Source: a virus (taxonomy: Duplodnaviria > Heunggongvirae > Uroviricota > Caudoviricetes). Taken from it: a stretch of 55,157 bases of DNA. The DNA is taken from the IMG/VR virus record IMGVR_UViG_2721755660_000006, positions 1-55,157 of that record, one strand, 5' to 3'. This document shows, in pieces, positions 1 through 55,157 of the stretch; position 1 is the stretch's first letter; every line of letters begins with the position of its first letter. The position numbers were made by a program, and so were the translations under genes. A model generated the notes under the pieces. That model was given only the letters and a program-made list of their open reading frames with translations. It was not told the DNA's origin and did not search any database.

Positions 1-1446
1 ATGAGTATGTCATCCATACCGTCGTCCTCCCAATCCGGGAAGCTCTATGGCTGGGTCGAAAGAATTGGTAACAAGGTTCCCCATCCTTTTTTGCTCTTTA
101 TCTATTTGATAATCGTACTCATGGTGACGACGGCAATTTTGTCAGCCTTTGGCGTCAGTGCGAAAAACCCGACCGATGGTACGCCGGTGGTGGTGAAAAA
201 CCTGCTCAGTGTGGAAGGATTACACTGGTTTTTACCCAATGTGATTAAAAACTTTAGCGGTTTTGCTCCACTTGGAGCGATCCTGGCGCTGGTTTTAGGT
301 GCCGGCCTAGCGGAGCGCGTCGGCTTACTGCCAGCGCTAATGGTTAAAATGGCATCGCATGTTAATGCCCGCTACGCCAGTTATATGGTGCTGTTTATTG
401 CTTTTTTCAGCCACATTTCTTCCGATGCGGCGTTAGTGATCATGCCACCGATGGGTGCGCTGATTTTTCTGGCGGTGGGCAGGCATCCAGTTGCAGGTTT
501 ACTGGCCGCCATTGCAGGCGTAGGTTGCGGCTTCACGGCTAATTTACTGATTGTCACAACCGACGTGTTGCTGTCGGGGATCAGCACGGAAGCGGCGGCT
601 GCGTTCAATCCGCAAATGCACGTCAGTGTAATTGATAACTGGTATTTTATGGCCAGCTCCGTAGTCGTTCTGACGATTGTTGGCGGCCTGATAACCGACA
701 AAATCATCGAGCCACGGTTAGGTCAATGGCAGGGAAACAGCGATGAGAAACTGCAGACATTGACCGAAAGTCAGCGTTTTGGTTTACGCATAGCAGGTGT
801 CGTATCGCTACTTTTTATTGCTGCGATCGCGCTGATGGTGATCCCGGAAAACGGGATATTGCGCGATCCGATTAATCACACCGTGATGCCATCACCCTTT
901 ATTAAAGGTATCGTGCCACTAATCATTCTTTTTTTCTTTGTGGTTTCGCTGGCTTATGGCATCGCTACCCGCACAATTCGACGTCAGGCGGATTTACCGC
1001 ATTTAATGATTGAACCGATGAAAGAGATGGCGGGATTTATCGTGATGGTTTTTCCCCTCGCCCAGTTTGTCGCCATGTTTAACTGGAGCAACATGGGGAA
1101 ATTCATCGCCGTGGGGCTGACCGATATACTTGAAAGTTCAGGGCTTAGCGGCATCCCGGCGTTTGTCGGTCTGGCGTTGCTTTCCTCTTTCTTATGCATG
1201 TTTATTGCCAGCGGTTCCGCAATCTGGTCGATTCTGGCCCCCATTTTCGTACCAATGTTTATGCTACTTGGCTTTCACCCGGCATTTGCGCAAATCCTCT
1301 TTCGTATTGCCGACTCATCCGTATTGCCTTTAGCGCCGGTATCTCCTTTTGTTCCACTGTTTCTTGGATTCCTGCAACGCTACAAACCAGACGCAAAACT
1401 GGGTACTTACTATTCGTTAGTCTTGCCCTATCCGCTTATCTTTTGA
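1..1446 (+). CDS. abgT: AbgT-family p-aminobenzoyl-glutamate transporter (host gene, ORF starts at window position 1)
   Basis: 481-aa polytopic membrane protein; N-terminus MSMSSIPSSSQSGKLYGWVERIGNKVPHPF recognised as E. coli AbgT from memory; stop lies 70 bp before the attL core. Confidence 0.85.
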   Translation: MSMSSIPSSSQSGKLYGWVERIGNKVPHPFLLFIYLIIVLMVTTAILSAFGVSAKNPTDGTPVVVKNLLSVEGLHWFLPNVIKNFSGFAPLGAILALVLGAGLAERVGLLPALMVKMASHVNARYASYMVLFIAFFSHISSDAALVIMPPMGALIFLAVGRHPVAGLLAAIAGVGCGFTANLLIVTTDVLLSGISTEAAAAFNPQMHVSVIDNWYFMASSVVVLTIVGGLITDKIIEPRLGQWQGNSDEKLQTLTESQRFGLRIAGVVSLLFIAAIALMVIPENGILRDPINHTVMPSPFIKGIVPLIILFFFVVSLAYGIATRTIRRQADLPHLMIEPMKEMAGFIVMVFPLAQFVAMFNWSNMGKFIAVGLTDILESSGLSGIPAFVGLALLSSFLCMFIASGSAIWSILAPIFVPMFMLLGFHPAFAQILFRIADSSVLPLAPVSPFVPLFLGFLQRYKPDAKLGTYYSLVLPYPLIF

Positions 1447-1516
1447 ATGGATAACTTAATGAAATATTCATTTTTATTCAATGTGTTATGCTTTGTTTTT
1501 GTTTTTGATTTATCAT

Positions 1517-1538
1517 TTTGGTCACTATTTGGTACACA
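1517..1538. repeat. attL core: 22-bp direct repeat TTTGGTCACTATTTGGTACACA, identical copy at 55124..55145
   Basis: Exact 22/22 identity found by eye at both prophage ends; right copy abuts the integrase start. Confidence 0.8.
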
Positions 1539-1540
1539 AA

Positions 1541-1568
1541 AAGAAACGAGGCGTTAGCCTCGTTTCGC
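1541..1568 (-). terminator. Rho-independent terminator after the tail fibre gene
   Basis: Hairpin ACGAGGC-GTTA-GCCTCGT followed by a T-run on the minus strand, just past the tail fibre stop. Confidence 0.6.
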
Positions 1569-1595
1569 GCGGCGATGTTCTTCGCACATCACCTC

Positions 1596-4500
1596 TTATT
1601 TTTCGCTTCCGGTCAACTGCCGGACAAGCGCTTCAAGTTTAGTGATCCGCTCATCCATGACGGCAATGTTAGCTCGTAAGCTGGCGTTTTCTTCCTCCAG
1701 TTCGGTGACGCGGTTATCTGTTTCGCGTGCCACCTGAACAAGTAAACCAGTCACAGCCGCATAGTCAACATTAAGATAGCGCGTTTCTTCGCGTAGCTCG
1801 TTGCCGTCAATGGTCGGACCTTGTAACGCTTCACCGTAATGAGTAAACGATCCCACAGCTTCCGGAAGCGCCTCCATGACCTCCTGAGCGATAACGCCAG
1901 CGTAAGGCAGGCCGTTTTCCTTAAGCGTGTAGGTGTACCCGTTCATTTTACGGATTGCTTCAGTAGCATCGCCTATAACCTGAATGTTGTCCTTCAGGTC
2001 GCGGTCTGAAGACTGGTTTACTGTTACGCAGTTTACAGCACCATTAACCTGAAGTTGGCATGAATCATCAGTGTTTTGCTGTGCGTAAAAAAACCATGAA
2101 AGCGACGCGTTTGTGTCTGGATCTTTTATCTTGTACTCAAGTACAGTCGGACGGCTTGCTGCACCCCACAAATAAAGCTCGCCATTTCTTGCCGCTGAAT
2201 TTGCGACGGCTAAACTTACTTTTCTTGTGTAAGTATCAGCGAAAAACTCCGTAGATTTAAATTGCTGGTATCCAGTCCACCTTTGCGAAGATGCGTTAAG
2301 AGTAGCAATTTGACACCAGCCCTTATCTACTCCGGCCTCAAAACTTCTGGCATAGAATTTTGAATTACGTCCGGCGAATTGAGTTGCGTGGCTACCGCTA
2401 AATCCAACATGAAAACCACCATAAGTTAGGCTATTTTCAGGTGTATTAATGTTACCAGCAATAGGCTTAAATTTGCTTACGTTATCTGATTGTTGTGCGC
2501 TCCAGTCCTGATCTGAATATGTCGCAACCCCGTTTCCAGGCTGTATAGTTCCGTTTGATTGGATAACCTGGTAAGAATCACCATATTTATTGCGGTATGT
2601 ATCAGTGCAATAAAACCCTGTTGCACTCGATGTAAAATCAAGTAGGTTATTACTAATGCCGTAAGTGTCTAAATCAATACCATCAGAGGAATTAGTGATA
2701 CCCCATTTATAAGTCGGACTATCTGCTGTGTTAGCTGGCTTCCAGTCTGCTGTAGGTATTGTTACAGTACATCCAACCGTAACAGCGATGCGAATGGGGA
2801 AGGCATCACCGCGAACATAGATCGCGTTATGCTGATACTGCCCTTTATCAGTACCGCGAACGCAAAGTATCGCGTTTTCATTGTTTGCGTAACAGAAATA
2901 ATGACCAAATGCAGCCGCCCCCATATCTGACCAGCCACCATCACGTAACCATAAATGAATTGCGTTACAGTTAGGCTCTTCACTGCCAGATATTGACTTA
3001 GTTCTCATTGCAATTTCAACAAGGAAATCGCCGTTATAGTGTGAAGGATGGCTGACAATTACAGGGTAATATTTACCAGCTTCAGCACCAGTAGGGGCGT
3101 TGTAATCAACCCAATGCGCAATACCTGCAAACGGGATTTGCATATTGGTTTTAGTTTGTTCAAGGTTTGTAGGTACTGCAATTGCATTGACTTTCAGGTT
3201 AGGTACTTCTATTTCATCCCTTGCATAGTTGTAGCTCATTGAATTGCTTGTTTTCGTCCCGTCATATCCGTCTTTCTGAATACGCCAGTTACCACCATCA
3301 AAGACAAGGCTATAGTAAGGTGTATTTGATGGCCGATCCGTTTCGTTGAATCTGATGGTAGGATGAGCGCTTGATATTTCTACGGGATAATTAAAATTAG
3401 CTGTTAATCTTACACGCCTACCTATAAAATCACCGCTATTTAAAGAAAAGTCGCCGTCTTCGCTTAATCCTGCGTATTGGTTTTTATCTCCATTCTGTAG
3501 GTGAATTGTGGCCCATGATTTACCATCGCCACGGAATTCTGAATAAAAACGCGCTCGCGCTCTTTGTGCGCCTGATGCATCATTAAGGACGCTTTGTAAA
3601 ATACCGCCTGCCGTGGTTGCGACATCTGACGACCTAACAAGGTTAAGGTTTGTAAATTGCGGGCTATCAGTAAAATCAAGAGACTGAAATTTCTTCCATG
3701 CGGTCCACTCCCAACCAGAAGAGGAAGACTGAATGATGTGCTGGCGCATATAAAATGTACCAGTCGTGGCATTGTAAGGGAAATAAAGCTGCGTGCATCC
3801 TGCGTTACCGTTCGCATTATTTCTAATAACAAGCAATGCTCCCGCACTTGATACAGGATAACCGCGCGCAGTCGTGGCATTTGCGTTTAACCCCTGGTAA
3901 TAAAAACCGGAATACTCGCCTGTAAGCGTATTAATATCTGTGGAACCTAGATCTGATTTTTTCTCATACATAGCCTCAAGGTTAGTGCGAGCTTGTCCTG
4001 AATTAAGCCCGCCTGTACCACCATGTGCTACTTTTAACGGAACAAAAGCGCCTGCGGAATCATCATACACACCCCAATTAATAGTATCCCCTGTTCCACC
4101 ATCCCACAGAACAAATTTTTGTTTTCCTCCTGCGGCCCACAAAGCAGTCTCACTGCTACCCTGAACTAAGCGACTAACCTCATCTTTCCTTGCGTGGCGC
4201 GTCCATTGTGGGCCTGTTGATTCGCTCCACTTATAAGTGTAAGCACTTCCGGTCATCTGCCCTATAAAAAGGCCAGAAAATGCCGGGACACTGCCTAAAG
4301 TCGGGCAAATAAAGCCAGACAAATAGCGCTCACCTGAAGCAATAGAAGGCCACCCGGCAGCCCCTTCCATGATGCGCAGAAAGCCAAGATAACCTGATGG
4401 GTTTCCTGAAATATCCGGGCAATCTCTGGGGTTTGAGGAAAGACCAATGCTACTCCCGACAATACCTTGCGCCTGATTGCGATAGTTTAGCGCATCGGCT

Positions 4501-5078
4501 GCTGATTTTGCCGCATTGGTTTCACTGGTGGCAGCCGCCGTTTTGCTGTTGCTGGCTGATGTTTCGCTGGCTTTTGCTGCATCCTGTGACGCTTTCGCTG
4601 CGGTCGCTGAGTTTGCCGCTGCTGTTTTTGATGCCGCCGCCGCGTTTTTGTCTGATTCTGTTTTTTGAGCGTTGGCGGTTGATTGCGCTGTTTCTGCGCG
4701 AATGTTGGCAAGAAGCTGATCCATCTGACCATCTCCGCCGAAATCTTTCCACCACTCGACGGCTGCGGCGATCTCTGTTTCCTTGCCCTGGTAGTAACGC
4801 AGTGTTTCAGCTACGTCCTGAGCAAGACCATCAACTGAGATCGAGTCAGAAAGCAGAATGCTAAATTTTGTCCCTGCAGGAATGGCAGGATTAGCCGCAG
4901 GCGTTACTGATAATTCAGTACCGCTCTTAATTTCGGTGATAGTGAAAATCTGTACCGGATTTCCAATGGCAATGAGCGTGCACCCCACACGGATGAGAGA
5001 GAGCGGCGCGGAAAAGTTTGTTCCCGTGCCTGTAACAGTATTGCCGCTAATGGCAATTGTTCCCGTTGTATAAATCAT
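1596..5078 (-). CDS. Tail fibre protein with C-terminal intramolecular chaperone (peptidase S74-like) domain
   Basis: 1160 aa; Ala/Ser/Thr/Lys-rich repetitive N-proximal region as in lambdoid side tail fibres; C-terminal SSDRDLKDNIQVIGDATEAIRKMNGYTYT matches the conserved autoproteolytic chaperone motif. Confidence 0.8.
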   Translation of the reverse strand: MIYTTGTIAISGNTVTGTGTNFSAPLSLIRVGCTLIAIGNPVQIFTITEIKSGTELSVTPAANPAIPAGTKFSILLSDSISVDGLAQDVAETLRYYQGKETEIAAAVEWWKDFGGDGQMDQLLANIRAETAQSTANAQKTESDKNAAAASKTAAANSATAAKASQDAAKASETSASNSKTAAATSETNAAKSAADALNYRNQAQGIVGSSIGLSSNPRDCPDISGNPSGYLGFLRIMEGAAGWPSIASGERYLSGFICPTLGSVPAFSGLFIGQMTGSAYTYKWSESTGPQWTRHARKDEVSRLVQGSSETALWAAGGKQKFVLWDGGTGDTINWGVYDDSAGAFVPLKVAHGGTGGLNSGQARTNLEAMYEKKSDLGSTDINTLTGEYSGFYYQGLNANATTARGYPVSSAGALLVIRNNANGNAGCTQLYFPYNATTGTFYMRQHIIQSSSSGWEWTAWKKFQSLDFTDSPQFTNLNLVRSSDVATTAGGILQSVLNDASGAQRARARFYSEFRGDGKSWATIHLQNGDKNQYAGLSEDGDFSLNSGDFIGRRVRLTANFNYPVEISSAHPTIRFNETDRPSNTPYYSLVFDGGNWRIQKDGYDGTKTSNSMSYNYARDEIEVPNLKVNAIAVPTNLEQTKTNMQIPFAGIAHWVDYNAPTGAEAGKYYPVIVSHPSHYNGDFLVEIAMRTKSISGSEEPNCNAIHLWLRDGGWSDMGAAAFGHYFCYANNENAILCVRGTDKGQYQHNAIYVRGDAFPIRIAVTVGCTVTIPTADWKPANTADSPTYKWGITNSSDGIDLDTYGISNNLLDFTSSATGFYCTDTYRNKYGDSYQVIQSNGTIQPGNGVATYSDQDWSAQQSDNVSKFKPIAGNINTPENSLTYGGFHVGFSGSHATQFAGRNSKFYARSFEAGVDKGWCQIATLNASSQRWTGYQQFKSTEFFADTYTRKVSLAVANSAARNGELYLWGAASRPTVLEYKIKDPDTNASLSWFFYAQQNTDDSCQLQVNGAVNCVTVNQSSDRDLKDNIQVIGDATEAIRKMNGYTYTLKENGLPYAGVIAQEVMEALPEAVGSFTHYGEALQGPTIDGNELREETRYLNVDYAAVTGLLVQVARETDNRVTELEEENASLRANIAVMDERITKLEALVRQLTGSEK

Positions 5079-5255
5079 CGCAATGACTCCATTATGTTAA
5101 TTAACGGAATAATTCTACCATTTTGTGATCTGCGTTACATTTTTGACGCATACAAAATGTATTTATTGATTTATATCAATATACGAAATGTGGTTTTGTC
5201 GGATATTTAAGCCACCGGATGAACCGGACGAGCTAACAAGAATGAGGATTCAAAA

Positions 5256-5504
5256 ATGAAAAACATGTTCAAAGTGGTCTTATTCGCTGCGGCTGTAGCT
5301 CTTACTGGTTGCTCTGTTGACAAAGAGGCTGCATTGCACAACCTGCCAAATAGCGGAGTAATCCCACAAGAAATTGTCTATGATGCTGACGGTCATCTTG
5401 TATATGACACTGAAAAACTTCCGTATACTGGACAATGGTGTCATGAACTCGATCACAACATGCGCCGCATCGGTAGCCCGTCGAATTGCGTAGCTAACTA
5501 CTAA
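5256..5504 (+). CDS. Small lipoprotein moron, possibly Cor-like superinfection exclusion
   Basis: 82 aa with lipobox (LTGC) after a hydrophobic signal; sits between tail fibre and J on the opposite strand; own upstream element and terminator. Confidence 0.6.
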   Translation: MKNMFKVVLFAAAVALTGCSVDKEAALHNLPNSGVIPQEIVYDADGHLVYDTEKLPYTGQWCHELDHNMRRIGSPSNCVANY

Positions 5505-5511
5505 AAGAAAA

Positions 5512-5537
5512 CCCCGCGCGAAGCGGGGTTATTTTTT
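5512..5537. terminator. Bidirectional rho-independent terminator between lipoprotein gene and J
   Basis: CCCCGCGCGAAGCGGGG hairpin flanked by A-run and T-run, between convergent gene ends. Confidence 0.75.
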
Positions 5538-8500
5538 ATGCCCATGATCCTGAGCTTCTCGTAACAAGCGCAAGACCCGCCCTTCTTTCTGCGCCTGTGC
5601 TGGTGTTAGTGTATTCTTCCGTTATTTTTATAGTCACTTTTTGCGCCGTGATCCCTGCGACACAATGGGATACCGTAAATCCGAATTGAGGCGTTGATGC
5701 AGCCCTTACTACTGAATATGTTTTCTTATTGCCATTAATATCAATTGTTACTTTTATGGATGTTGATTGAGAATATTGATAGTAAGTCAGGTGATAAGGA
5801 ATCATCACAAAAACGGTTTTAGAAAGCGAACTCGAAGACGAATCTGTATAAGTTTTAGTAACAGAACGCGATGCACTGCCCGACTGGTCAGGGAATGATG
5901 CTTGAGGTATAAAGTTAGTTGACGCGACATCGCCTACAAAACTTGTAGCCTCTAGCGACCCTTTAAATTTACCGCTATTTGCATACACCGCCCCCCTTAC
6001 CGTTACGTTGTTAAGCTCCGCGCTACCGTTTTTATTAATCATCCAGCCAGCCGAACCGGCTTTATAGTTGGTTGACTGTATTTGCTGTGCAATTTTAGCT
6101 GTAGTGATTGCTGCATCTGCAATTTTAGCTGTCCCTATTGATGCGTCTTTAATAAACGCTTCGCGCACATACATTGCACCATTGGTGACATAGAAAGGCG
6201 TTTGATATGTGCCGTTTGCGGCGGTCATTAACACGAAGCGGTCAACAAGGAAAATACACTGCGATTGAACGTTAGTCCCGCTACCAGTCAGGCCAAGAGA
6301 CATGCCTGTTGCGTATTTTTTGCCGTTGTTGTCGGTGGCAATCTTGATTGACCATGACGCATCAACGTTACCTTTGAAGTCAGTTAACGCTTTCGATGTC
6401 GTCTCGATCGCCGTGGTGTTCCCGTTAACTGTTACTGTAAGCTGATCAATTTTGGTTGATAATGCCTCGTCCGCAGTTGTCATGGTCTGCGACCATTCCG
6501 TGATGCTTGAGTTTACAGCTTCGAAAGACGCTGAGATCTGGCTGAATTTTTCCGCGCTTGATGTTTCATGCGTAGAAAGTGCTGTTGACACTTCAGATAC
6601 TTTCGAATTAATCGTACTGGTAAGCGATGAGTTAAGACTACTTATTGCATCTGTGCGGGCCTTTGTCTCATCTGCAATAGCTTTGTCGATACGGGTCACA
6701 TTGCTTGTAACCTTGCTATCAAGCGTGCTGATGCTTGCATTCACTCCGCTGATAGCTTCGGTTCTTGCGCTCGTCTCATCTGCGATGGCTTTATCAAGAC
6801 GAGAAACACTTGCGTCTGTTTTGTTTTCAAGGCTGCTTATTGAGGCATTTACTCCGCTTATTGCTTCCGTTCTTGCCTGTGTTTCGTTTGCAATAGCTTT
6901 GTCTACTCGCGCTATCTCGCCTTTGATGTTTGAGTCCATCGTGTTCATCTCTGCGGTGATAGTTTCAAGCGCTTCTGCTGTTGCCTGTTTTTCGTCAGCA
7001 ATAACATTGTCTATACGGTCGATTTGCGCTTTAGTCTCACTGCGCCCTTTCTTGTATTGAGCGGTAAGAGTGACGCGCGTATTAGTTTGAGCAAGCGAAT
7101 TATTGATGAGCGCAAGCGATGCGTTTTGTAGGCTTGCTTTTGTCTGTGCCAGTTCGTTATCGACGTTTTCGCTTGATACCTCTAATGAGTCTATTCTTAC
7201 CTCATGTTTGCCTATTTCATCGGCGTTTTCTTCGACTTTTTTATAAAGGTCTTCAGTGTCTTTTTTAAGCGCGTCTGTGTCTGTTTTAAGGTTGTCTGTA
7301 GCTGTTTTAAGGTCGTCTGTAGCTGTTTTAAGGTCTTCAGTTGCACTTTCGATAATGTCTGCGCGGTCGCCAAGATCCTTAATGTCGCTTACCATTTCCT
7401 TGAACTGGTCTGAATTCAGCACGTCTTTAGTGACATAATCGCTGATTTCATCGAAGTTTTCTGTTGGCTGTCCTGATGCTTCTACGAAGTCAGAAACACC
7501 AAAAGCATTACGTGTGCGCACATAAACGTAATAAGTGTGGCCCGTATTCATGCCGCCGAAAGTCCACTGATACCCGCGCCCGGTAAACTGTGCCGCCGTG
7601 GTTATTTTTGCCGGATCTGTGATCTGGTTTTCCCCTGCATAGTAGAATTCGTACGCTGTATCAGTTGTTAGCGTTGTCTTGCTTATCGGGTACACTGTAG
7701 CCTGAAATACACCTGGAACCCAGTTAACGCCTACTGGCGCTGCTGGCGCACCGATAACAAGGTCAACGATACTTTCGGCACCCTTCATGCCAGTATCATT
7801 TCTTCCGCGAACCCCTAAAGAATACACGCCAGCGTCAATGCCATAAAAATCATAACTGTATTTCGTGGTTTCATAGCTTTTAACCACCGCACCATCTGCA
7901 TTATATATGCGGATCTCAAATGTCATACGATGCGTGGTTGTCTGTGTTTCCCATGTGGCGCGGCATTGAATTGTTTCCGATCCAATGTTTACCACCTTCA
8001 GATTTTCAATGTTCGGCACGCGGAAATGATTAAGCGTATCATTGTTGACCTCAAAGATTGCGCCTTCATCGACTATCGCTTGTTTGTTAGGGTCGTGCTG
8101 TGCGGCTTCGATAGTGTATACGCTGTTATTTTCTGTTTCTGCTACACTGGTGATCCGGCACAAAACGGGTTTTGCCACTTCAGTCGATACAGCAAAAACA
8201 GTGCCGTTTCTAATCCATGACGGGGCCGCCGCCAGTGTGATTTTGTTTCCGCTCACCCCGGTGATCTGATGTTTTTTAAACTTGCCATCGCTATCAAGAA
8301 GGCTGATTGTATCCCCAGCGGCAATATATTTAGCATCAACCTTGTCTACAGTTATTACTTTGCCGTTGTTCGCAACGATGCGACCGCCTAAGCGAGCGCC
8401 AGCGCGGTTATTATCGAGGATCTCGATGATATCCCCTGGCGTAAAGTGAATCGCGTCACGGGCCATTTTAAACGTGAATTTTGACGGCTCGCGTTTTGCT

Positions 8501-28011: not shown

Positions 28012-28088
28012 TTTTTAATCTCCCGGTATACGTCCACGGCAATGACTGTAATAACAGCCACCAGCAATAGCATTTCATATGCGTTCAT
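28008..28088 (-). CDS. Mini transmembrane peptide 5 (26 aa)
   Basis: MNAYEMLLLVAVITVIAVDVYREIKK; AGGTGA Shine-Dalgarno; the track 61-aa ORF 28008..28193 is an upstream in-frame extension. Confidence 0.5.
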   Translation of the reverse strand: MNAYEMLLLVAVITVIAVDVYREIKK

Positions 28089-28096
28089 GCTTTCAC

Positions 28097-28171
28097 CTAT
28101 ACAACATTCTTCCACCAGAAATAGATAATGACAGCGACCAACGACCACCAGATGAGATCGTAAATATTCAT
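28097..28171 (-). CDS. Mini transmembrane peptide 4 (24 aa)
   Basis: MNIYDLIWWSLVAVIIYFWWKNVV; GAAGG Shine-Dalgarno. Confidence 0.5.
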   Translation of the reverse strand: MNIYDLIWWSLVAVIIYFWWKNVV

Positions 28172-28182
28172 GGTGAATACCT

Positions 28183-28269
28183 TCAGCTTTCAATGAATAT
28201 CATGATCGCCAGCCATACAGCGACGCAGGCAGAAAGGATAATGAGCGGGTCAATCATATTGTCACCCAT
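28183..28269 (-). CDS. Mini transmembrane peptide 3 (28 aa, or 24 aa from the internal Met)
   Basis: MGDNMIDPLIILSACVAVWLAIMIFIES; ATG directly follows the stop of peptide 2. Confidence 0.45.
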   Translation of the reverse strand: MGDNMIDPLIILSACVAVWLAIMIFIES

Positions 28270-28365
28270 CTAATATTTGCTCTTTACGGTTATCAGCACG
28301 GCGATAACAAAGCCAACCAGAAATATAGATATGCCTATTAATCCGGCGATGGTGCTGTCGTCCAT
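28270..28365 (-). CDS. Mini transmembrane peptide 2 (31 aa)
   Basis: MDDSTIAGLIGISIFLVGFVIAVLITVKSKY; TGA-TT-ATG junction with peptide 1. Confidence 0.5.
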   Translation of the reverse strand: MDDSTIAGLIGISIFLVGFVIAVLITVKSKY

Positions 28366-28367
28366 AA

Positions 28368-28451
28368 TCAACCTACGGGCCATTTTGGGGAAAACATTAC
28401 AATCGCAGTTCCAGCCGCGCCGATAAATACACCTAGCAGGAAAGTAAACAT
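28368..28451 (-). CDS. Mini transmembrane peptide 1 (27 aa)
   Basis: MFTFLLGVFIGAAGTAIVMFSPKWPVG; GGGGTGA Shine-Dalgarno; ATG two nt after the stop of the HExxH protein gene. Confidence 0.5.
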   Translation of the reverse strand: MFTFLLGVFIGAAGTAIVMFSPKWPVG

Positions 28452-28453
28452 AA

Positions 28454-28996
28454 TCACCCCCGTTTAAAGCTCATAACGCGCGGTACAAGCGCTTCTTTTG
28501 CTTTCGGCTTACGTTTGCCTTTCTTCGCGGTTTTTTCTTCTTCCTTCGGCTGTTCTGCCTGTTCTAATGCCTGCTCAACGACTTCAGCCGCCTGCATTGC
28601 TGCCACCTGTGATTCATTTGATTCTGCCAGGATGGGGAAGAAAGCATCAAAGATACGGCCCACCATGTAAGCGTAAGTCTCATTCGCCGGGTGAGTTTGA
28701 TCAGTTGTCGCTACGACGCCTACATCACTTAAAACGTGAAATGTCGTGTGAGCGCATTCATGCACCAGCGTTCCTAACTCATTGTCGAATACTGCGATCA
28801 CGTAGAAGTTACCGCCTTTCTCACCAGTGCAAGTAAGCGTCAATCCTCCTGCCAGTTCGAAATCAGGTTCTATTGGAATTCCTGCCTTCTCGCAAAATTC
28901 ATAAAACATCTCGCGGGTCGGGCAAAAGAAAACGGTTGTATGCTCAAAGAGCGGGATCTTGAATTGAGGCAACTTAATGCCTTTAGCCTTAGCCAT
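28454..28996 (-). CDS. Hypothetical protein with HExxH motif and lysine-rich C-terminal tail (possible zinc metallopeptidase-like)
   Basis: 180 aa; LVHECAHTTFHV contains HExxH; C-terminal KEEEKTAKKGKRKPKAKE; sits between the spanins and the peptide array. Confidence 0.6.
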   Translation of the reverse strand: MAKAKGIKLPQFKIPLFEHTTVFFCPTREMFYEFCEKAGIPIEPDFELAGGLTLTCTGEKGGNFYVIAVFDNELGTLVHECAHTTFHVLSDVGVVATTDQTHPANETYAYMVGRIFDAFFPILAESNESQVAAMQAAEVVEQALEQAEQPKEEEKTAKKGKRKPKAKEALVPRVMSFKRG

Positions 28997-29274
28997 CAGA
29001 ATATTCCTCTATCCTGAAAAATATAACCCCCGCAAAACTCGACACCGCAGGGAGTGAAAACAGCTATAAAACACTGAAAACGGCGCTTAATCAGTACCGT
29101 TTCCAGAATTTTATAAAATTGGTGAATGGCGCTTTCTTCTGCCCAGGTAGCGCCGACCTGTTAATGGGATGGATGATCCGGCATTACGTGTTTTTGACTA
29201 TTCCGCCGTCGCTCGCGGGAAGGATTGACCCGGTTATGGCTGGCTGGCGGAAACGGCGACACGTCCACGCGCTG

Positions 29275-29757
29275 TTATTCTTTGCGTATGCACTGCGTCT
29301 TGATGTAGTCCTGCAATCCGGTGATCTTCGCGTCTTTCTCTTTTAGTTGTTCTCTGAGGGATAGATAAGCCGATTCAGCGTCGGGAGTGAGTCTACAGGC
29401 GGCTCCATCAATGCGGCTGGCGGTTCCGGTGGCGTCTGGCACTCGCACGGGTATTGCGTTGACGTGCAACCTGATAGCACCGCTATCAATACCAGCACGC
29501 AGATCAGCAATGTCAGATCTGATAGCTTTAATCTCATCGTGATACCTCTTATCAAGTTTTGATAGTTCGGCGTTTCGCTCCTTCATCTGCTGAATAGTGT
29601 TACTTGCTGTTTTTAGTGCGCCCTGCGTAGTAGTTAGCTCGCTTTGCATTGTGTTTATCACTGACTGGCAGTGACTAAGCGCGGCAACAAGCCCAACAAC
29701 GACACAAACGATAGCGGCGATGATTAACGCCTTTATCTTGTCCACGTTTCCCCCCAT
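29275..29757 (-). CDS. i-spanin (Rz-like)
   Basis: 160 aa; N-terminal TM helix, coiled-coil body, C-terminal LQDYIKTQC resembling lambda Rz; embedded Rz1-like ORF. Confidence 0.8.
29343..29537 (-). CDS. o-spanin (Rz1-like lipoprotein) embedded in Rz in another frame
   Basis: [24 protein letters not shown] lipobox followed by proline-rich region ([12 protein letters not shown]), as in lambda Rz1. Confidence 0.75.
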   Translation of the reverse strand: MRLKLSDLTLLICVLVLIAVLSGCTSTQYPCECQTPPEPPAALMEPPVDSLPTLNRLIYPSENN

Positions 29758-30224
29758 TCACAAACGGCATATTCAACATCACGGCGGTTGATTAAACCTT
29801 GCCATTTTTGACCACCAGCATATATCCAGCGTTTAAGCTGGGCGCACGCTTCGGATTTCTTGCCGTCATTGAGTAGTTTTAACAGTGTGGATGTTTTGAA
29901 GTTGGTAGCGCCTACGTTATAGGCGAATGAATAAAGCGCAGCGCGGGTGAAATCTGATATTTCGACTTTAATATATGGGTCAATCGCTTTTGCGGTTTTG
30001 TGGAGATCCTTGTTTAACAAAGCATCGCATTCTGATTGCGTGTAAGTCTTACCAAGCATGATGTCTTTTCCGGTGTGACCATAGCAAACGGTCCATACGC
30101 CGATAACATCACGATAGGGATCGTACTCCACGCCCTCTAATGGTTTAACCATCACAGCCGCAATAGCGATCGCCCCACCAGCCGCCGCAGCAATAATCTT
30201 ATTCTTCAGCGATTGGCTAATCAT
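29733..30224 (-). CDS. SAR endolysin (phage lysozyme, P21 R-like)
   Basis: N-terminal signal-arrest-release helix ([15 protein letters not shown]) and lysozyme catalytic region [23 protein letters not shown] closely resembling P21 R; start set to MISQSL. Confidence 0.9.
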
Positions 30225-30225
30225 G

Positions 30226-30426
30226 TTACTTATTCCCCATTCGCGCGTCGTGTTCCTCTTGCGCTCGCTTGTTCTCCTGTGATTTGAAGTAATAATTAAC
30301 GGCAAATGTGCCTATGGTTGATAAGATACCCACAAAGACGGCAATATCATTGATGGTTATCGCGCCGAAAAAAGCAGTTACGGCCCCAGTCACATACGCG
30401 CACGCCTCCCGTATTCTGTCGAACAT
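30226..30426 (-). CDS. Class II holin (pinholin-like)
   Basis: 66 aa with two TM segments and charged C-terminus, directly upstream of and overlapping the SAR endolysin start. Confidence 0.8.
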
Positions 30427-30449
30427 AGATTTACCTCCAACAAAGCAAA

Positions 30450-30470
30450 AACCCGGCGCGGTGCCGGGTA
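30450..30470 (-). terminator. Rho-independent terminator immediately upstream of the holin (candidate tR-prime-like late antitermination target)
   Basis: Minus strand reads CCCGGCACCGCGCCGGG then TTTTTGCTTTGTT, followed by GGAGG Shine-Dalgarno and the holin ATG. Confidence 0.6.
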
Positions 30471-30531
30471 ATTACAATTTCGCATTGTTAGGAAATATTT
30501 TAATCTATTTGTTTTTTATGCGCGATTATGG

Positions 30532-30729
30532 TTACAAATCACCAACCTTGCGCCAGTATCTATGATTAACCATCGTGATAACTTCTTTCGCTGTCATAGG
30601 TAAAAATGGCTCATGCCACCGATCAAGACTACCGAGGCGCATCAAAACGTGCTCACCTTCGAGGCGGTAATAAGCTCGCGTAGCCAATGACTGATAAACT
30701 CCATCATATTCATGGTCGCTATTTCCCAT
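30532..30729 (-). CDS. Hypothetical protein
   Basis: 65 aa from the Met preceded by GGAGCG (MGNSDHEYDGVYQ...). Confidence 0.45.
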   Translation of the reverse strand: MGNSDHEYDGVYQSLATRAYYRLEGEHVLMRLGSLDRWHEPFLPMTAKEVITMVNHRYWRKVGDL

Positions 30730-30912
30730 TTTTACGCTCCTTAATGGCTCGCCTGATTTGCTCTGCCGTAGCGTCGAAGAAAGCAATAAAAACAGTCACA
30801 GGCCAAAAAGGAATCTCAAGTCCACCAGGTTCTGCACCGCTAAACTTAATAAAACATGACATCAGGATCGCGCCAGCGATATAAAGCAAAAACAATCACA
30901 GCTATAAGGCAT

Positions 30913-31044
30913 TCAATCATCTTCACCCCCAAGATCGTGATAAATATCGTTAGGGTCTTCACCATGTTCCTCGCAAAAACGCTCAAATAGCGCCCAATTT
31001 TCAGAAAGAAACATGATTAATAAATTTTTATACCACTCTTCCAT
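30913..31044 (-). CDS. Hypothetical small acidic protein (43 aa)
   Basis: ATG directly follows the stop of the upstream gene; MEEWYKNLLIMFLSENWALFERFCEEHGEDPNDIYHDLGGEDD. Confidence 0.35.
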   Translation of the reverse strand: MEEWYKNLLIMFLSENWALFERFCEEHGEDPNDIYHDLGGEDD

Positions 31045-31293
31045 TTAATCATCCTCATCGTCTTCATGTTCAGCCAGGAACTCATCAACCACGCGGTAAG
31101 TTACTGGCGGGATGTATTCGAAATCATCAGAATCAAGATCAAGCGTCCTGCTGTCGCCGTCGTCGTCCAGCGTATTCATCCCTAATTCACCGAAAGGGCC
31201 ATACCCAATGTGGCCCAGGTATTCGCAACCAGTCGTAAAGCCAGGGTATTCACCTTTACAACGGATTTTGTAAGGTCTATTTGATGCGCTCAA
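31045..31293 (-). CDS. Hypothetical highly acidic protein
   Basis: 82 aa; C-terminal half is Asp/Glu-rich (DDDGDSRTLDLDSDDFEY...EHEDDEDD). Confidence 0.5.
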   Translation of the reverse strand: MSASNRPYKIRCKGEYPGFTTGCEYLGHIGYGPFGELGMNTLDDDGDSRTLDLDSDDFEYIPPVTYRVVDEFLAEHEDDEDD

Positions 31294-31600
31294 TTTTCGA
31301 TCCCCCGTCTTCCGATTCTGTTATTTTGTATTCCGCGACCTTTTCCGCGCCAATTAATTCGACTTCGTTTTCCGGGAAAGGATTAAGCACCAGCGCAGCA
31401 AAAACAAAGCCCCTGACTTTATTTAGATCTTCAAGGTGTTTTGCATCAAAAGGCGGTTCAGATACGTGGAAGCATTTAACGTGCGCGTCGTCTTCAGTGG
31501 CTACACGGAAACATGCGCCAGGTTGTCCGGCGAATTGTCCATGTTTTTTATCTTCTGAAATAGTGCCACGGAAAACTTTAACGCTGATAAATTTACTCAT
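31277..31600 (-). CDS. Hypothetical protein
   Basis: 107-aa ORF in co-directional gene string. Confidence 0.5.
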   Translation of the reverse strand: MSKFISVKVFRGTISEDKKHGQFAGQPGACFRVATEDDAHVKCFHVSEPPFDAKHLEDLNKVRGFVFAALVLNPFPENEVELIGAEKVAEYKITESEDGGSKIERIK

Positions 31601-31603
31601 TGT

Positions 31604-31885
31604 TTATTCTCCTTCGTAAAGAGTCGTCACCAGTTCGGCGTCAATTAGCGTGTTATGATCTGTATAAAACCCGTGGCGCATTGCGAAAGCTATTTCACCA
31701 GCCATTTTCCGCCACATGGGTAAAGATTCATTCAAGTATGTTTTTTCCAATTCCTCATTGTATGCCAATTCATAAAACCGACCACGATTAACATCTTCAA
31801 TAACGCGGCTGTATTCGCCATCTAACTTGCTATTACCGCGCCATAGTCTGATAACAACCACTGTTTCACTCCTTATTGGGGCCAT
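31604..31885 (-). CDS. Hypothetical protein
   Basis: ORF; probable GTG start after AAGGAG at about 31861. Confidence 0.45.
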   Translation of the reverse strand: MAPIRSETVVVIRLWRGNSKLDGEYSRVIEDVNRGRFYELAYNEELEKTYLNESLPMWRKMAGEIAFAMRHGFYTDHNTLIDAELVTTLYEGE

Positions 31886-46200: not shown

Positions 46201-46848
46201 TTATGGCAGGTTTACGATCTTCGCATCAACCACCACGCCTATAATTTTTGATTCTGGATTCATAGGGATTGGCGGATACAGCGGATTCAGCGAACGTAAA
46301 AGCCTTTGACCTCCATCAATAATCAACTGTTTAAACGTCGGTATCTGCCCTTCCTCAAGCTGGGCTATAACCAGTTTGCCGTCAATAGCTGGCGCGTGCG
46401 GGTCAACAAGTATCATCGTCCCCGCCGGGATGCTCAACCCCTGCGGCGCGTTCATTGATTCACCTTTGGCAACCAGCCAGTAACTATCATCTGAACAAAT
46501 AACGCTAGTCGTAACGTGTGGTAATGCTGATCGCCTTGTGTCATCCATATTGTTTACTGTGTCCTTCCAGTCAATAACCGGGTAACTACCTAAATCACGC
46601 GGCGGTGCGGCCTGAAGTGTATTAGAAACAGAATCATCAATGACCATACCATCATGTGTAACAGTGAACTGACGACGCCCAAGCGCCCGCATAATCCGCG
46701 CAATATCTTCAAGATTTGGCTCGCGGCGACCGTTAAGCCAGTGTGACAGGCCGCCTTTAGTTATCCCCATGAGATCTGCGAGTGAATCCTGACTCATGCC
46801 CTGCGCCCGCATGAGCTGCTTTGCTAAGTCATACCATTTTGTTTTCAT
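46201..46848 (-). CDS. CI-like repressor (HTH plus S24 LexA-type peptidase domain)
   Basis: 215 aa; N-terminal HTH (MSQDSLADLMGITKGGLSHWLNG) and C-terminal S24-like autocleavage region with GESM and DGKLVIAQL. Confidence 0.85.
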   Translation of the reverse strand: MKTKWYDLAKQLMRAQGMSQDSLADLMGITKGGLSHWLNGRREPNLEDIARIMRALGRRQFTVTHDGMVIDDSVSNTLQAAPPRDLGSYPVIDWKDTVNNMDDTRRSALPHVTTSVICSDDSYWLVAKGESMNAPQGLSIPAGTMILVDPHAPAIDGKLVIAQLEEGQIPTFKQLIIDGGQRLLRSLNPLYPPIPMNPESKIIGVVVDAKIVNLP

Positions 46849-46869
46849 GTCGCTACCCTATAACCTCAA

Positions 46870-46980
46870 AAAGTTTGATGCAAGTCACAAAACGTGTATT
46901 TTAAGCCTTGATCTTAAAATTCCATTTTGTAAACTTGCAGACAAGGTAAGGCCATACTTGCAAAGACGCAAGGAAAAAGA
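46870..46980. promoter_or_regulatory. Operator-like palindromes in the repressor/cro-position intergenic region
   Basis: Repeated half-site ACTTGC/GCAAGT: GCAAGTCAC near 46873, ACTTGCAGACAAGG near 46930, ACTTGCAAAGACGCAAGG near 46959. Confidence 0.4.
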
Positions 46981-47154
46981 TAACGGAAGGCACAAAAAGG
47001 CACTTACCTTAAGCTCTTTAAAAATCCGGTGTCGCTGCGAAGCGAAAAACAAATATCACGCAACGGCGGGATCTGTTGAGCGGTCAGTCACTGCTATCTA
47101 ATGCTAATGGGATGCCCGCCCGCGCGTTCACTCTAACCATAGGAGAAAAACAAG

Positions 47155-47409
47155 ATGAGTATGCACATGATGAATGAAGCATGGAACGTAAAACTTAACA
47201 GCCCGATCCAAAAACTTGTCTTAATTGCGTTTGCAGAAAAGGCAGACAACAAAGGCCGCGCACATGCTTCACGCGAAGAGATCGCAAAAGTGTGCGAACT
47301 GCCACTGCATACTACTGTTGACGCATTAAATTCATTGATCCGCAAAGGATTCATTAAACGCGCTGACGAATACGGCGACATTTATGACATTGCATTGCCG
47401 GAGGAATGA
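47155..47409 (+). CDS. HTH DNA-binding protein in the Cro position (replisome-organiser-type winged helix)
   Basis: 84 aa; KLVLIAFAEKADNKGRAHASREEIAKVCELPLHTTVDALNSLIRKGFI; stop 3 nt before the next gene. Confidence 0.55.
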   Translation: MSMHMMNEAWNVKLNSPIQKLVLIAFAEKADNKGRAHASREEIAKVCELPLHTTVDALNSLIRKGFIKRADEYGDIYDIALPEE

Positions 47410-47412
47410 TCT

Positions 47413-48471
47413 ATGAAGTGGTTTAAGCATGATAGCGATGCGAACCGCGATGAAAAACTTCAAAACGTTTTATTAGATTATGGCCTGGAAGGGTACGGGC
47501 TTTATTGGTATTGCCTAGAACTAATAACTTATGACGTAGATCAGCACAATCTAACTTTTGACCTACGACATGACGCAAGAATAATTGCGCGAAACGTCGG
47601 ATCTACTGAAAAACGTATAGAAGAAATGATGAAATACTTCATCGAAATTGGTTTGTTTGAATGTTCTCAAGGCCACATAACTTGTTTAAAGTTATTGAAA
47701 AGGCTGGACCAATCAATGACTTCTAAAAGCGCTTACAGGGCCGCCATAAACACAGCGAAGGAGCAATTAAAATTAGAAAAGTTAATCAATCCAACACAAA
47801 AAGGTCATGATAGGGTCATGACCGGGTCAGGAAAGGGTCATGAATTAGAATTAGAATTAGAAGTAGAAAAAGAAAGAGAAAAAGATATATACACTTCGTG
47901 TATTGTCGAAAATGAACAAAAAATGGTCAATCAGGATGGCGTAAACGAAGCGGCATTGCGTTGCCTTGCCTTCTACAACGACAAGGCAGGATGCAAATGT
48001 CGTGATGCTAAGCCATTCGTAGAACTACTGACAGAAACAAAAACACGTAAAGCGTATACGGAGGATGAGATCACATTAGTGATTGAGTGGGCTTTAACCC
48101 AATGGCGTAGCCGTGGTGGAGTACCTAAGCCTATCAACATTTGCCGGGTAACTAAGTTTGATGGGTATTTGGCTGATGCTGAACAATGGCGCAAGCTATC
48201 AGCTACTGTAAACGCTGCCGACGTGGTGGAAGCATTTAACAGCACGTTTGACGGCCTGTTACCACCTGCCGAACTGGATCGGGATCTTGAACGCAAGATC
48301 TATGCGTTCACTGACTACCTGAAAGACAAAAGCATTAACGGCTTTGTCGCCTACTTCGAAACGTTCAAAAACACGGCTTCAGATTTTTACTTCGGCAATG
48401 GCTTCACTGCGACACTTGATTTTCTGCTTAAACCAAAAACGCTACGTGATACGCGCGCTGGCGTTCTTTGA
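47413..48471 (+). CDS. Replication initiation protein / replisome organiser (lambda O-like role)
   Basis: 352 aa; N-terminal MKWFKHDSDANRDEKLQNV...GLEGYGLYWYCLELI typical of phage replisome-organiser N-domains; internal iteron block. Confidence 0.7.
   Translation: MKWFKHDSDANRDEKLQNVLLDYGLEGYGLYWYCLELITYDVDQHNLTFDLRHDARIIARNVGSTEKRIEEMMKYFIEIGLFECSQGHITCLKLLKRLDQSMTSKSAYRAAINTAKEQLKLEKLINPTQKGHDRVMTGSGKGHELELELEVEKEREKDIYTSCIVENEQKMVNQDGVNEAALRCLAFYNDKAGCKCRDAKPFVELLTETKTRKAYTEDEITLVIEWALTQWRSRGGVPKPINICRVTKFDGYLADAEQWRKLSATVNAADVVEAFNSTFDGLLPPAELDRDLERKIYAFTDYLKDKSINGFVAYFETFKNTASDFYFGNGFTATLDFLLKPKTLRDTRAGVL
47795..47895. promoter_or_regulatory. Candidate replication origin: four GGGTCATGA-type iterons plus AT-rich repeat tract inside the organiser gene
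   Basis: AAGGTCATGATAGGGTCATGACCGGGTCAGGAAAGGGTCATGA followed by ATTAGAATTAGAATTAGAAGTAGAAAAAGAAAGAGAAAAAG. Confidence 0.55.
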
Positions 48472-48603
48472 CCAATCACGATCCGCAAAAATCCAAAATT
48501 ACCCACAAAACAACCTCATCAGCGAGCTAAATCGCATGGGGGCTACACTTGCTTACCTTTTTGCGATTAGCTTGTTATGGAGCGTTTCAGAGAGGATTTA
48601 GCT

Positions 48604-48705
48604 ATGAACGGTAAACGCATGTTCGCCCTGGCTTTCGCGATCGCGATGGCTATCGCTGTTAACGTCGCCTTGTTCGGCGGCTTATATCTACTAGTTAATC
48701 CATAA
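48604..48705 (+). CDS. Mini hydrophobic peptide (33 aa)
   Basis: MNGKRMFALAFAIAMAIAVNVALFGGLYLLVNP; GAGAGGA Shine-Dalgarno. Confidence 0.4.
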   Translation: MNGKRMFALAFAIAMAIAVNVALFGGLYLLVNP

Positions 48706-48866
48706 CTACCCTTCTACCTTAAAAATCGAAAATTAGCCACCTGATTGCGCTTCTGGCGCAAAAAAGACACTGCACCCTTACAAGTGGGTTACGCGGTGGA
48801 TTTTTGCGTTGTAGCGCGTTTTACGGAAAATAAATATACATTCTGTAAACCGGAGGAATTAACGTT

Positions 48867-49985
48867 ATGTCACAAAGAAAGATCAGCGATGAACAGTTAA
48901 TCGCTGAACATAATAACGGTCTGACGTATAAACAGATCGCAGAAAAATATGGCATGGCAAAACGCAACGTCGAACGCCTGGGCGCACGGTTGGCGAAACG
49001 CGGTTTAATATCCACGCGCCGCGCACCGGGTTTTGGCGTCAATGCTGAGTCATTGCTCGTCGATAAGGATGGCAATGTGATTATGCGCTGGATTAAAACA
49101 GCCCGTGACCGCGATGAAATGGAAATGCTAATGCAATCTGCTTGTGACGCCTTCACGGAAGAAATACCCCGCGCGGAGGCCGTGCCAGTGCCGGAAATTG
49201 ATTTTCAAAAAAGCCTGGCCCTTTATCCGGTATTCGATCTGCATATCGGGGCGCTTGCTCATAAAGCTGAATGCGGTGAGAGCTACGACACCGGGATCGC
49301 TGAACGCGTGCTAAATGACTTCTTCGACTACGCGGTAGGCGCTGCGCCAATGTCTGAAAAGGCTGTTTTGCTTCTCGGCGGTGATGTGCTTCACACTGAC
49401 GGCCTGTTACCAGTGACGCCATCAAGTAATCACGTTTTAGATTGTGATTCACGCTACGCAAAACTGGTTTATGTGGCGATCCGGTCGGTCCGGCGTGCGG
49501 TCGGGAAGATGTTACTAAATCATAAGGATGTCGAGATCCAGGTATTATCCGGTAATCACGACCAATCAGGTATGATCTGGCTACGTGCTGCGCTGGCGGC
49601 TTTTTACGAAGATGAACCGCGTGTGACGGTTGATGTGTCACCTGCTATCGTCCATCACACACAGTACGGCAAAACATTTCTTGCTTACCACCACGGGCAC
49701 ACTATCAAAAAGCCAGAAAATTTACTTTCTGCCTGCGTTTCTGACTGGCGGGAGGATTTCGGCAAGTCGTCGTCTGTTTACGCTCATTGTGGACACTGGC
49801 ATCACCAACGGCTGATTGAATCATCGTTGGGCGTTGTTGAGTACCACGGCACGTTAGCTGGCAAAGACGCTTATTCAACGAATGGCGGCTGGCGGTCGCG
49901 GCGGCTGGCTGCGGTAATAATTTACAGTCCTGATCATGGGGAAATCGGGCGCTTTGTTTATTACCCTGAATATTCCATTTTGTAA
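48867..49985 (+). CDS. Calcineurin-like metallophosphoesterase with N-terminal HTH-like domain (Mre11/SbcD-like motifs)
   Basis: 372 aa; motifs DLHIG, GGDVLHTDG, GNHD, HHGH, GHWHH; N-terminus LTYKQIAEKYGMAKRNVERL. Confidence 0.65.
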   Translation: MSQRKISDEQLIAEHNNGLTYKQIAEKYGMAKRNVERLGARLAKRGLISTRRAPGFGVNAESLLVDKDGNVIMRWIKTARDRDEMEMLMQSACDAFTEEIPRAEAVPVPEIDFQKSLALYPVFDLHIGALAHKAECGESYDTGIAERVLNDFFDYAVGAAPMSEKAVLLLGGDVLHTDGLLPVTPSSNHVLDCDSRYAKLVYVAIRSVRRAVGKMLLNHKDVEIQVLSGNHDQSGMIWLRAALAAFYEDEPRVTVDVSPAIVHHTQYGKTFLAYHHGHTIKKPENLLSACVSDWREDFGKSSSVYAHCGHWHHQRLIESSLGVVEYHGTLAGKDAYSTNGGWRSRRLAAVIIYSPDHGEIGRFVYYPEYSIL

Positions 49986-50003
49986 ACCGGAGGCGATGCC
50001 ATA

Positions 50004-51425: not shown

Positions 51426-51503
51426 TTAACTTGAGCAAACGGCTTACCGGAAAGTTGACCGCTTTCTGGTGGCTGTTTTCGCGCTTAAAACGAGGCGAAA
51501 ACA

Positions 51504-52052
51504 ATGAGCATTGAACTTGAAGCAAAAATTATCAATATCCTTGAACTTGATGGCATCGCAACAATGCACCAGCTACGCCAGAAAACCGGATTATCAGCGG
51601 AATACGACGAAGCCGGATGCTTGCCGGAAACAGTTAAACACCTGATCGACACTAATCTGGTTGAGCGGGTGTATACATATTTTGGCCCGCGCCGCCGCTT
51701 GCTGGGCTATCGAATTAAATATTTATACGAACAACGACGCGAGCGTGTAGCCGCGTTATTTACTGACTACAACGTTAGAAAGCGAATGAGAGATATTAGC
51801 GCGGAAACTGGCATTCCGTGGAATTACCTTTCGCGCACGCTGCGTTTAATGGTGCTGGATGAAACGCTTTGCATAGATACCAATAAACACGGCCTTAATT
51901 TTTACTCACTGTTTAAACCTGGTCGCTTTGGTCACGCTAATGATCTCGCGTTTGATTTTGACAGCCGCCTGAACGAATACCGGAAAAATAACGGCCTGCT
52001 ACCGGATAAACCAGTATTTGAGATCGAAAAACTCAACGGGGAACGGGGTTAG
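51504..52052 (+). CDS. Hypothetical protein
   Basis: 182-aa ORF downstream of dnaB-like gene. Confidence 0.5.
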   Translation: MSIELEAKIINILELDGIATMHQLRQKTGLSAEYDEAGCLPETVKHLIDTNLVERVYTYFGPRRRLLGYRIKYLYEQRRERVAALFTDYNVRKRMRDISAETGIPWNYLSRTLRLMVLDETLCIDTNKHGLNFYSLFKPGRFGHANDLAFDFDSRLNEYRKNNGLLPDKPVFEIEKLNGERG

Positions 52053-52056
52053 AATT

Positions 52057-52263: not shown

Positions 52264-52272
52264 GGGGGAATT

Positions 52273-52915: not shown

Positions 52916-52917
52916 TA

Positions 52918-53094: not shown

Positions 53095-53095
53095 T

Positions 53096-55121: not shown

Positions 55122-55123
55122 AA

Positions 55124-55145: not shown

Positions 55146-55157
55146 CATTTTACGCAT

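Follow-up and report, generated by a model that had tools for sequence, protein, structure and literature searches.

The window analysed here (the whole stretch of DNA, 55,157 bp in length) opens with the host gene abgT and runs through nearly all of a prophage to a point just beyond the start of the integrase gene. The following features define its two ends.

1 to 1446, plus strand: abgT', truncated gene of the p-aminobenzoyl-glutamate transporter, 481 codons plus a stop codon formed at the junction
1429 to 1444, no strand: real att core at attL as mapped here, TATCCGCTTATCTTTT, a 16-bp identity of attP and attB inside abgT
1445 to 1538, no strand: P' arm of attP (phage DNA), identical to the attP of phage MagusPhagus and holding a 70-bp stretch and a 22-mer copy (1517-1538)
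1543 to 1566, minus strand: intrinsic-terminator-like hairpin (inverted repeat) with T-run, downstream of the tail-fibre gene
1596 to 5078, minus strand: tail-fibre gene (1160 aa), with which the phage genes start on the left
53922 to 55121, minus strand: tyrosine integrase gene, int (399 aa, start MLTDTK), with the domains Arm-DNA-bind_3, Phage_int_M and Phage_integrase; RefSeq CDS of 1200 bp
55122 to 55157, no strand: first 36 bp of the P arm of attP; the ATG of an alternative int ORF (411 aa) coincides with the window end
55124 to 55145, no strand: P-arm copy of the 22-mer, 2 bp upstream of the int start codon

Identity of the prophage

The prophage occupies window positions 1445 to 55157 and is cut by the right end of the window, from which about 125 bp of the P arm and the core are absent. 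Escherichia phage MagusPhagus (PP925836.1), a free phage of 54,396 bp, is collinear with the entire prophage at 86-99.9% identity. The end blocks (window 1429-6795 and 46201-55157) are 99.7-99.9% identical between the two, with 99.7% overall for the left block and an identical core, whereas the difference is concentrated in a variable block at 28088-31877, which shows 86-95% identity with gaps; most of the remainder is 97-99% identical. The annotation of the MagusPhagus record comprises N-like and Q-like antiterminators, a tape measure, J and further tail genes. Collinearity over the whole length was established with MagusPhagus alone, and the phages mEp010, mEp013 and mEp044 were compared at the prophage ends, where the identity amounts to 87-90%. 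The mEpimmI group has been described by its syntenic genome of about 54 kb, with a CI-like repressor, N-like antitermination and a siphovirus-type tail module among the core genes (PMC11893012). Judged by these alignments, the prophage is essentially the deposited phage MagusPhagus and a member of the mEpimmI group.

For mEpimmI phages with a type II integrase, integration in the 3'-terminal region of abgT has been reported (Front Microbiol 2025, PMC11893012). The type II members named there are mEp010, mEp013 and mEp044 together with the prophages of strains UMNK88, RM9245, GN04592, GN05505, E21845, 190, 127 and MLI107, and all eight of these prophage strains were recovered in our junction searches. 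The prophage in the window does not differ essentially from the type II phages, with which it shares the locus at the abgT 3' end, the attP arms, an integrase gene of about 90% nucleotide identity and probably the genome architecture. Integration of mEpimmI phages into abgT was known in substance before this analysis and is in itself an ordinary finding; as the phage group, the integrase type and the abgT site have been in print since 2025 and GenBank contains an almost identical free phage, the weight of the finding as a discovery is small. The text of PMC11893012 makes no mention of a 27-aa truncation, of arm repeats, of ogt or of NarL.

The attachment core lies inside abgT

A megablast search of window positions 1-1700 against 5,426 complete Escherichia coli genomes located abgT in 4,914 of them. 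The homology to native abgT stops at window position 1444 and not at 1516, both in the 4,190 full-length matches and in every prophage-free genome listed. After the shared sequence ...CTTATCTTTT the native gene continues with TGGTGGTATGG and the window with GAATGGATAAC, i.e., ...ATCTTTT / TGGTGG... stands against ...ATCTTTT / GAATGG..., and the latter junction recurs in about a dozen complete genomes. Seen from the phage side, the alignment with MagusPhagus opens at window position 1429, the first base of the 16-mer core, and ydaM-type prophages are, in their P' arm, homologous to the window from exactly 1445 onwards. The attP of MagusPhagus is arranged in the order int start, 22-mer, 121 bp, TATCCGCTTATCTTTT, 72 bp, 22-mer, terminator hairpin and tail-fibre gene, so that the core is separated by 72 bp from the 22-mer on its right and by 121 bp from the one on its left, next to the int start. 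These comparisons place the crossover within abgT codons 477-481, the junction at nucleotide 1444 of the 1527 of abgT and the core at 1429-1444.

Within the core, natural variants indicate the position of the strand exchange. Host alleles vary at core position 6 (A or G), and the phage cores occur in two forms, TATCCGCTT... and TACCTACTT.... In the lysogens UMNK88, N1286, RM9245 and GN04592, attL shows the host form and attR the phage form, so that the variable positions 3, 5 and 6 of the core go with the sequence to their left; this places the exchange to the right of position 6, within CTTATCTTTT (1435-1444). In assembly GCA_026364075.1, yegI adjoins the same phage arm, with the reading ...CCGCTTATCT and then CTGATG, and the native yegI sequence is GTGTACCGCTTATCTCTGATG; from this junction, yegI is recognizable as a secondary integration site that shares CCGCTTATCT with attP. 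Where the mappings from the lysogen variants and from yegI intersect, CTTATCT (1435-1441) emerges as the candidate 7-bp overlap. Its length is the right size for the overlap of a tyrosine recombinase. An inverted repeat GTTATCC/GGATAAC, which surrounds the core of the MagusPhagus attP and is centred on 1441, would favour an overlap at 1438-1444, and the yegI site favours 1435-1441; since the inverted repeat is poorly conserved in mEp010 or GN04592, it was given no weight.

The right end of the window falls short of attR. Only 12 bp of the window follow the right-hand 22-mer, and the continuation of the P arm beyond this point is seen in the loci L018, L003, L004 and L005. In UMNK88 and RM9245, about 125 bp more of phage DNA follow the right-hand 22-mer before abgT resumes with ...CTTATCTTTT / TGGTGG, and ogt-fnr-uspE is located to the right of attR. 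The succession of P arm, core, TGGTGGTATGG... and ogt is common to three lysogens (UMNK88, RM9245 and L018); in L018 (draft genome GCA_030899465.1) the last 4,100 bp are identical to those of the window, and attR and ogt are found as expected. Projected from the free phage and these other genomes, the true attR is situated some 125 bp past the right end of the window.

The 22-bp repeats in the arms of attP

The perfect 22-bp direct repeat TTTGGTCACTATTTGGTACACA is present at 1517-1538 and 55124-55145, and by our own estimate only about 1e-4 such pairs would be expected by chance in 55 kb. The two copies are 231 bp apart in the attP of MagusPhagus, one on each side of the core. The 22-mer comprises two ATTTGGT units, a third such unit is found 20 bp further into int, and the P arm additionally carries six copies of an ACGATAG-like repeat. 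One 22-mer overlaps the region of the int translation start, and the other overlaps the terminator of the tail-fibre gene at its T-run. The 22-mer has been kept in both arms by every type II phage examined, and phage mEp021, which has a type Ia integrase, integrates at ydaM and uses a different core, also carries it in both arms with one mismatch each.

The integrase matches PF00589 (E = 1.6e-16; profile positions 2-169 of 172), PF13356 (E = 1.7e-19) and the PHROGs family phrog_1, integrase (E = 1e-63), its N-terminal domain matches PDB entries 3JU0 and 3JTZ, and the motifs CRTSE, HDLRRT, LGH and IYDQY are visible in the sequence. With an Arm-DNA-bind_3 domain and a tyrosine recombinase catalytic domain, it resembles the P4/CP4-like integrases with an N-terminal arm-binding domain; the arm-binding family PF13356 is not known as that of lambda Int itself. 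The int region is 89-90% identical in nucleotide sequence to those of mEp010, mEp013 and mEp044 and corresponds to type II in the mEpimmI classification. The protein shares 50% identity overall with the type Ia integrase of mEp021 and about 73% over the first 60 aa (own count on the alignment).

Like a lambda-type attP, the attachment site has a short core of identity between two long, AT-rich arms, both of which contain repeated elements; the repeats are distinct from the core and conserved among relatives. Binding of Int to the 22-mer is a prediction made here. The two 22-mers are probably a pair of arm-type sites for the N-terminal arm-binding domain of the integrase. In our reading, the core specificity would have diverged with the rest of the integrase while the arm-binding domain was conserved. 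A divergence of core specificity with retention of arm binding is known from lambda and HK022. The sequence GTCACTAT inside the 22-mer presumably resembles the lambda arm consensus, which may be a coincidence.

A less likely explanation of the conserved 22-mers would be that they are not arm sites of the integrase and have been maintained as promoter or translation signals of int and as the tail of a terminator, or as Xis or IHF sites. The copy that abuts the int start codon and the one in the terminator T-run are in agreement with such functions, which could account for part of the conservation, and Int or Xis might instead bind the six ACGATAG-like repeats of the P arm. However, two unrelated contexts need not share an identical stretch of 22 bp, the identity is held in both arms of phages with different cores, and the arm-binding domain is the most conserved part between the integrase types, all of which argues for the interpretation as arm-type sites.

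Next to the integrase gene, a further small reading frame deserves mention.

53746 to 53964, plus strand: gene of a 72-aa putative small DNA-binding protein, overlapping the int 3' end (weak match to phrog_4745, DNA binding protein, E = 3.5e-4)

A Pfam search with this 72-aa ORF returned no match, and the mEp021 annotation has an HTH protein at the homologous position. As a guess, the protein might be a candidate excisionase or AlpA-like factor.

Truncation of AbgT

The original prediction had counted 481 codons for the abgT ORF, given 508 aa for AbgT of E. coli K-12 and suspected an altered C-terminus, and all three statements were confirmed. The ORF at 1..1446 translates into 481 aa, and the native gene measures 1527 bp (508 aa) in a K-12 derivative, in strain 00_3230 and in other strains; in the first two of these, ogt starts 10 bp after abgT. 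Over residues 1-481 the protein of the window shows 0 changes relative to full-length AbgT from strain 00_3230. The proposed alignment to prophage-free abgT loci, with its match ending at window position 1444 and a native gene of 508 codons, locates the alteration at the junction, where phage bases form the stop: in the TGA at 1444-1446 (plus strand), T is the last base of the core and GA are the first two bases of the phage, such that the native frame ATC TTT TTG GTG becomes ATC TTT TGA. The 27 residues 482-508 (LVVWLLMLLAWYLVGLPIGPGIYPRLS) are lost.

The last hydropathy peak of AbgT extends approximately over residues 473-499 and is interrupted at residue 481. The match of the 481-aa protein to the Pfam family ABG_transport (PF03806, E = 2.6e-197) covers profile positions 1-476 of 502, compared to 1-500 for the native protein; AbgT of the window is thus not a full-length member of this family and lacks its complete C-terminal transmembrane helix. 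The lost segment aligns to a C-terminus that is conserved in MtrF (4R1I) and YdaH (4R0C), two homologues of solved structure, and RefSeq classifies equivalent copies of abgT as pseudogenes ('incomplete; missing C-terminus'). From this, AbgT of the lysogen is deduced to lose most of its last transmembrane helix, and its function is probably lost; in abgT', no decay beyond the truncation is seen. Phage 21 and e14 likewise integrate in a 3' coding end, i.e., that of icd, and rebuild the host gene. In contrast to these, the abgT phage supplies a stop codon alone and no substitute C-terminus, which leaves the host protein 27 residues shorter.

Integration splits the ogt promoter

The promoter of ogt is located within the 3' end of abgT, and one of its regulatory sites is found in the window.

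1404 to 1419, plus strand: NarL I site of the ogt promoter, left behind at attL at a distance of about 54 kb from ogt

The sites NarL I (TACTTACTATTCGTTA, centred at -77.5) and NarL II (TATCTTTTTGGTGGTA, centred at -44.5) are defined by the primers in the supplement of PMC7419079, with NarL I taken from ogt101. Both are essential for the induction of ogt, and nitrate induction is already abolished when NarL I alone carries point mutations (PMC7419079). The phage junction falls at the dyad centre of NarL II (-44.5). Duplication of the core rebuilds NarL II, the -35 element and the extended -10 element at attR, where all three are intact. NarL I is left at attL, some 54 kb off, together with the Fis site that overlaps it, and a scan of the phage P arm from -60 to -100 for 7-2-7 NarL sites revealed nothing at the 10/14 score of the native sites and accordingly no replacement of NarL I. 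Since NarL I and the Fis site are left behind at this distance, lysogens are predicted to lose the nitrate- and NarL-dependent induction of ogt together with its modulation by Fis; attR and ogt themselves are situated outside the window. Basal or otherwise regulated expression of ogt could be kept in lysogens.

The coincidence of the integration site with the ogt promoter may be new, and it leads to a simple testable prediction, namely that common gut-coliphage lysogens lack NarL-dependent induction of ogt. Whether lysogeny by abgT-integrating mEpimmI phages rewires the regulation of host DNA repair, with the loss of both the nitrate-induced, Fis-modulated Ogt and the function of AbgT, is a tentative proposition to which we give slightly less than even odds. 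If this is true, mutation avoidance during nitrate respiration in the gut would be altered by the phage.

It is rather improbable that the truncation and the split promoter are both neutral, i.e., that AbgT(1-481) still transports and that attR drives normal expression of ogt. In line with neutrality, abgT' has not decayed and is widespread (458 blocks of the protein collection contain exactly this protein), and NarL II, -35 and -10 are kept at attR. But most of the last hydrophobic helix, which is conserved across the family, is gone, and the loss of nitrate induction by point mutations in NarL I (PMC7419079) speaks against a normally working ogt promoter.

Boundaries of the prophage

The best overall explanation of the locus, to which we assign a probability of about 0.92, is an mEpimmI prophage with an attB inside abgT, with the 22-mers as arm repeats of attP and with a split ogt promoter. 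In this explanation the phage was inserted by its own tyrosine integrase into an attB within the 3' end of abgT, using the core TATCCGCTTATCTTTT (1429-1444) shared by attP and attB, with strand exchange within CTTATCTTTT. Phage DNA begins at 1445, and its first two bases complete the TGA that ends AbgT at residue 481 instead of 508.

The original prediction had placed the prophage just downstream of abgT and had taken the 22-bp repeat as the attL core. The former view has to be corrected, as abgT homology reaches 1444 and the core at 1429-1444 is part of the gene. The latter was abandoned: the proposed search for the 22-mer at the native abgT 3' end was run, and the repeat is not present at the empty locus, since the native abgT loci (K-12 type and closest allele, 00_3230) contain no match with up to 3 mismatches. 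The candidate role of the 22-mer as attB was rejected on the same grounds, the nearest matches in these loci carrying 7-8 mismatches. The 70 bp between the stop and the 22-mer (1447-1516) had rightly been described as AT-rich (20% GC versus 49% in abgT), but they are neither host nor remnant DNA and belong to the P' arm of the phage. With respect to the event behind the altered 3' end, for which integration or a remnant had been offered, integration stands and a separate remnant event does not, the 70 bp being the phage's own arm. A nested or tandem element had also been considered for the 72 bp between the end of abgT homology and the 22-mer and was rejected, as the free-phage attP shows an ordinary phage arm.

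It is very improbable that the prophage integrated downstream of abgT, with the 22-bp repeat as its true core and with the 3' end of abgT and the 70 bp replaced earlier by the remnant of another element. The perfect repeat brackets almost the whole prophage and the AT-rich 70 bp are unlike abgT, as this scenario would require; however, the empty sites are devoid of the 22-mer, in the attP of the free phage the two 22-mers and the 70 bp form one continuous stretch around a different core, which refutes the scenario, and about 125 bp of phage DNA follow the right-hand 22-mer before abgT resumes. The anatomy of the locus is corrected in three respects by integration within abgT: the perfect repeat flanking the prophage is not the att core, abgT is truncated and not spared, and the window falls short of attR. 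For the repeat-based calling of prophage boundaries this is a warning, since the repeats in the arms can exceed the real core in length and match more cleanly.

The other option of the original prediction, an AbgT that is short by nature and has no connection to the prophage, can practically be dismissed, as the length of the ORF and nothing else speaks for it, whereas phage bases form the stop codon, strains without the prophage have a 508-codon gene without the 70-bp tail, no prophage-free strain with a 481-codon abgT and the same 70 bp was seen when this combination was checked, and a phage tail-fibre or tail gene adjoins the identical 481-aa protein in 6/6 of the contexts listed. The tail genes next to abgT' differ in type among these six contexts, which fits recurrent lysogenisation. 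All type II phage arms examined start with GAAT, and every type II lysogen should hence end AbgT at residue 481.

Attachment-arm repeat shared with a different integrase type

Both attP arms of phage mEp021, which has a type Ia integrase and inserts at ydaM, retain with one mismatch the 22-mer that occurs as a direct repeat in the prophage described here (positions 150 to 175 of L016 and 365 to 390 of L017, the two mEp021 arms, versus window positions 1517 to 1538 in the P' arm and 55124 to 55145 in the P arm). The two phages differ in integrase type, core and host site, whereas the 22-mer in both arms is common to them. Position 1445 is the exact point at which the window becomes homologous to the P' arm of ydaM-type prophages. 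Taken together, the conserved 22-mer and the onset of this homology suggest that the integrase gene, P arm and core were exchanged as a module against a common P' arm. In the attP of MagusPhagus, the P arm between 22-mer and core is occupied by six ACGATAG-like heptamers in two clusters (positions 1960 to 2055 of L005, outside the window), which are candidate sites for Int, excisionase or a host factor.

The integrase gene itself can be read from either of two starts:

53922 to 55157, minus strand, integrase ORF with two possible starts

The upstream ATG at 55157, which is the right edge of the window, gives a 411-aa integrase, as annotated in MagusPhagus and mEp010, and translation would then run through the 22-mer. 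The start at 55121 yields the 399-aa RefSeq form with the N-terminus MLTDTK; in this shorter protein, the profile of the arm-binding domain has its position 1 aligned to residue 2.

Integration sites and the ogt promoter

Within the ogt promoter, NarL site II and the att core coincide (window positions 1404 to 1444; attR at positions 2830 to 2900 of L018, the attR/ogt locus of lysogen GCA_030899465.1). Integration leaves NarL site I and the Fis site at attL, and the remaining ogt promoter is rebuilt at attR.

The integration locus was abgT/ogt in 23 of the 24 contigs read and yegI in one. In the latter, GCA_026364075.1, the phage encodes an identical integrase of 399 aa and adjoins yegI, a protein-kinase gene, rather than abgT (positions 2840 to 2900 of L019), the junction reads ...GCGTTATCCGCTTATCT|CTGATGCAGG, and CCGCTTATCT is present in native yegI of strain Nissle (positions 110 to 140 of L020). 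This looks like a secondary attachment site in use.

For MLI107, the left-junction match begins only at window position 1497, and the 5' part of abgT is nonadjacent. A footnote to Table 2 of the mEpimmI paper (PMC11893012) lists an insertion site with a deletion of ~7 kb; the strain is unnamed in the accessible portion of its text.

Divergence from MagusPhagus and a tandem repeat

The sole block differing appreciably from MagusPhagus (positions 28088 to 31877; 95% and 86% identity) sits between the lysis genes and small early genes and includes unaligned gaps at ~30531 to 31045. The tail-gene region contains a tandem pair of 30-nt units that are 80% identical (positions 6088 to 6147).
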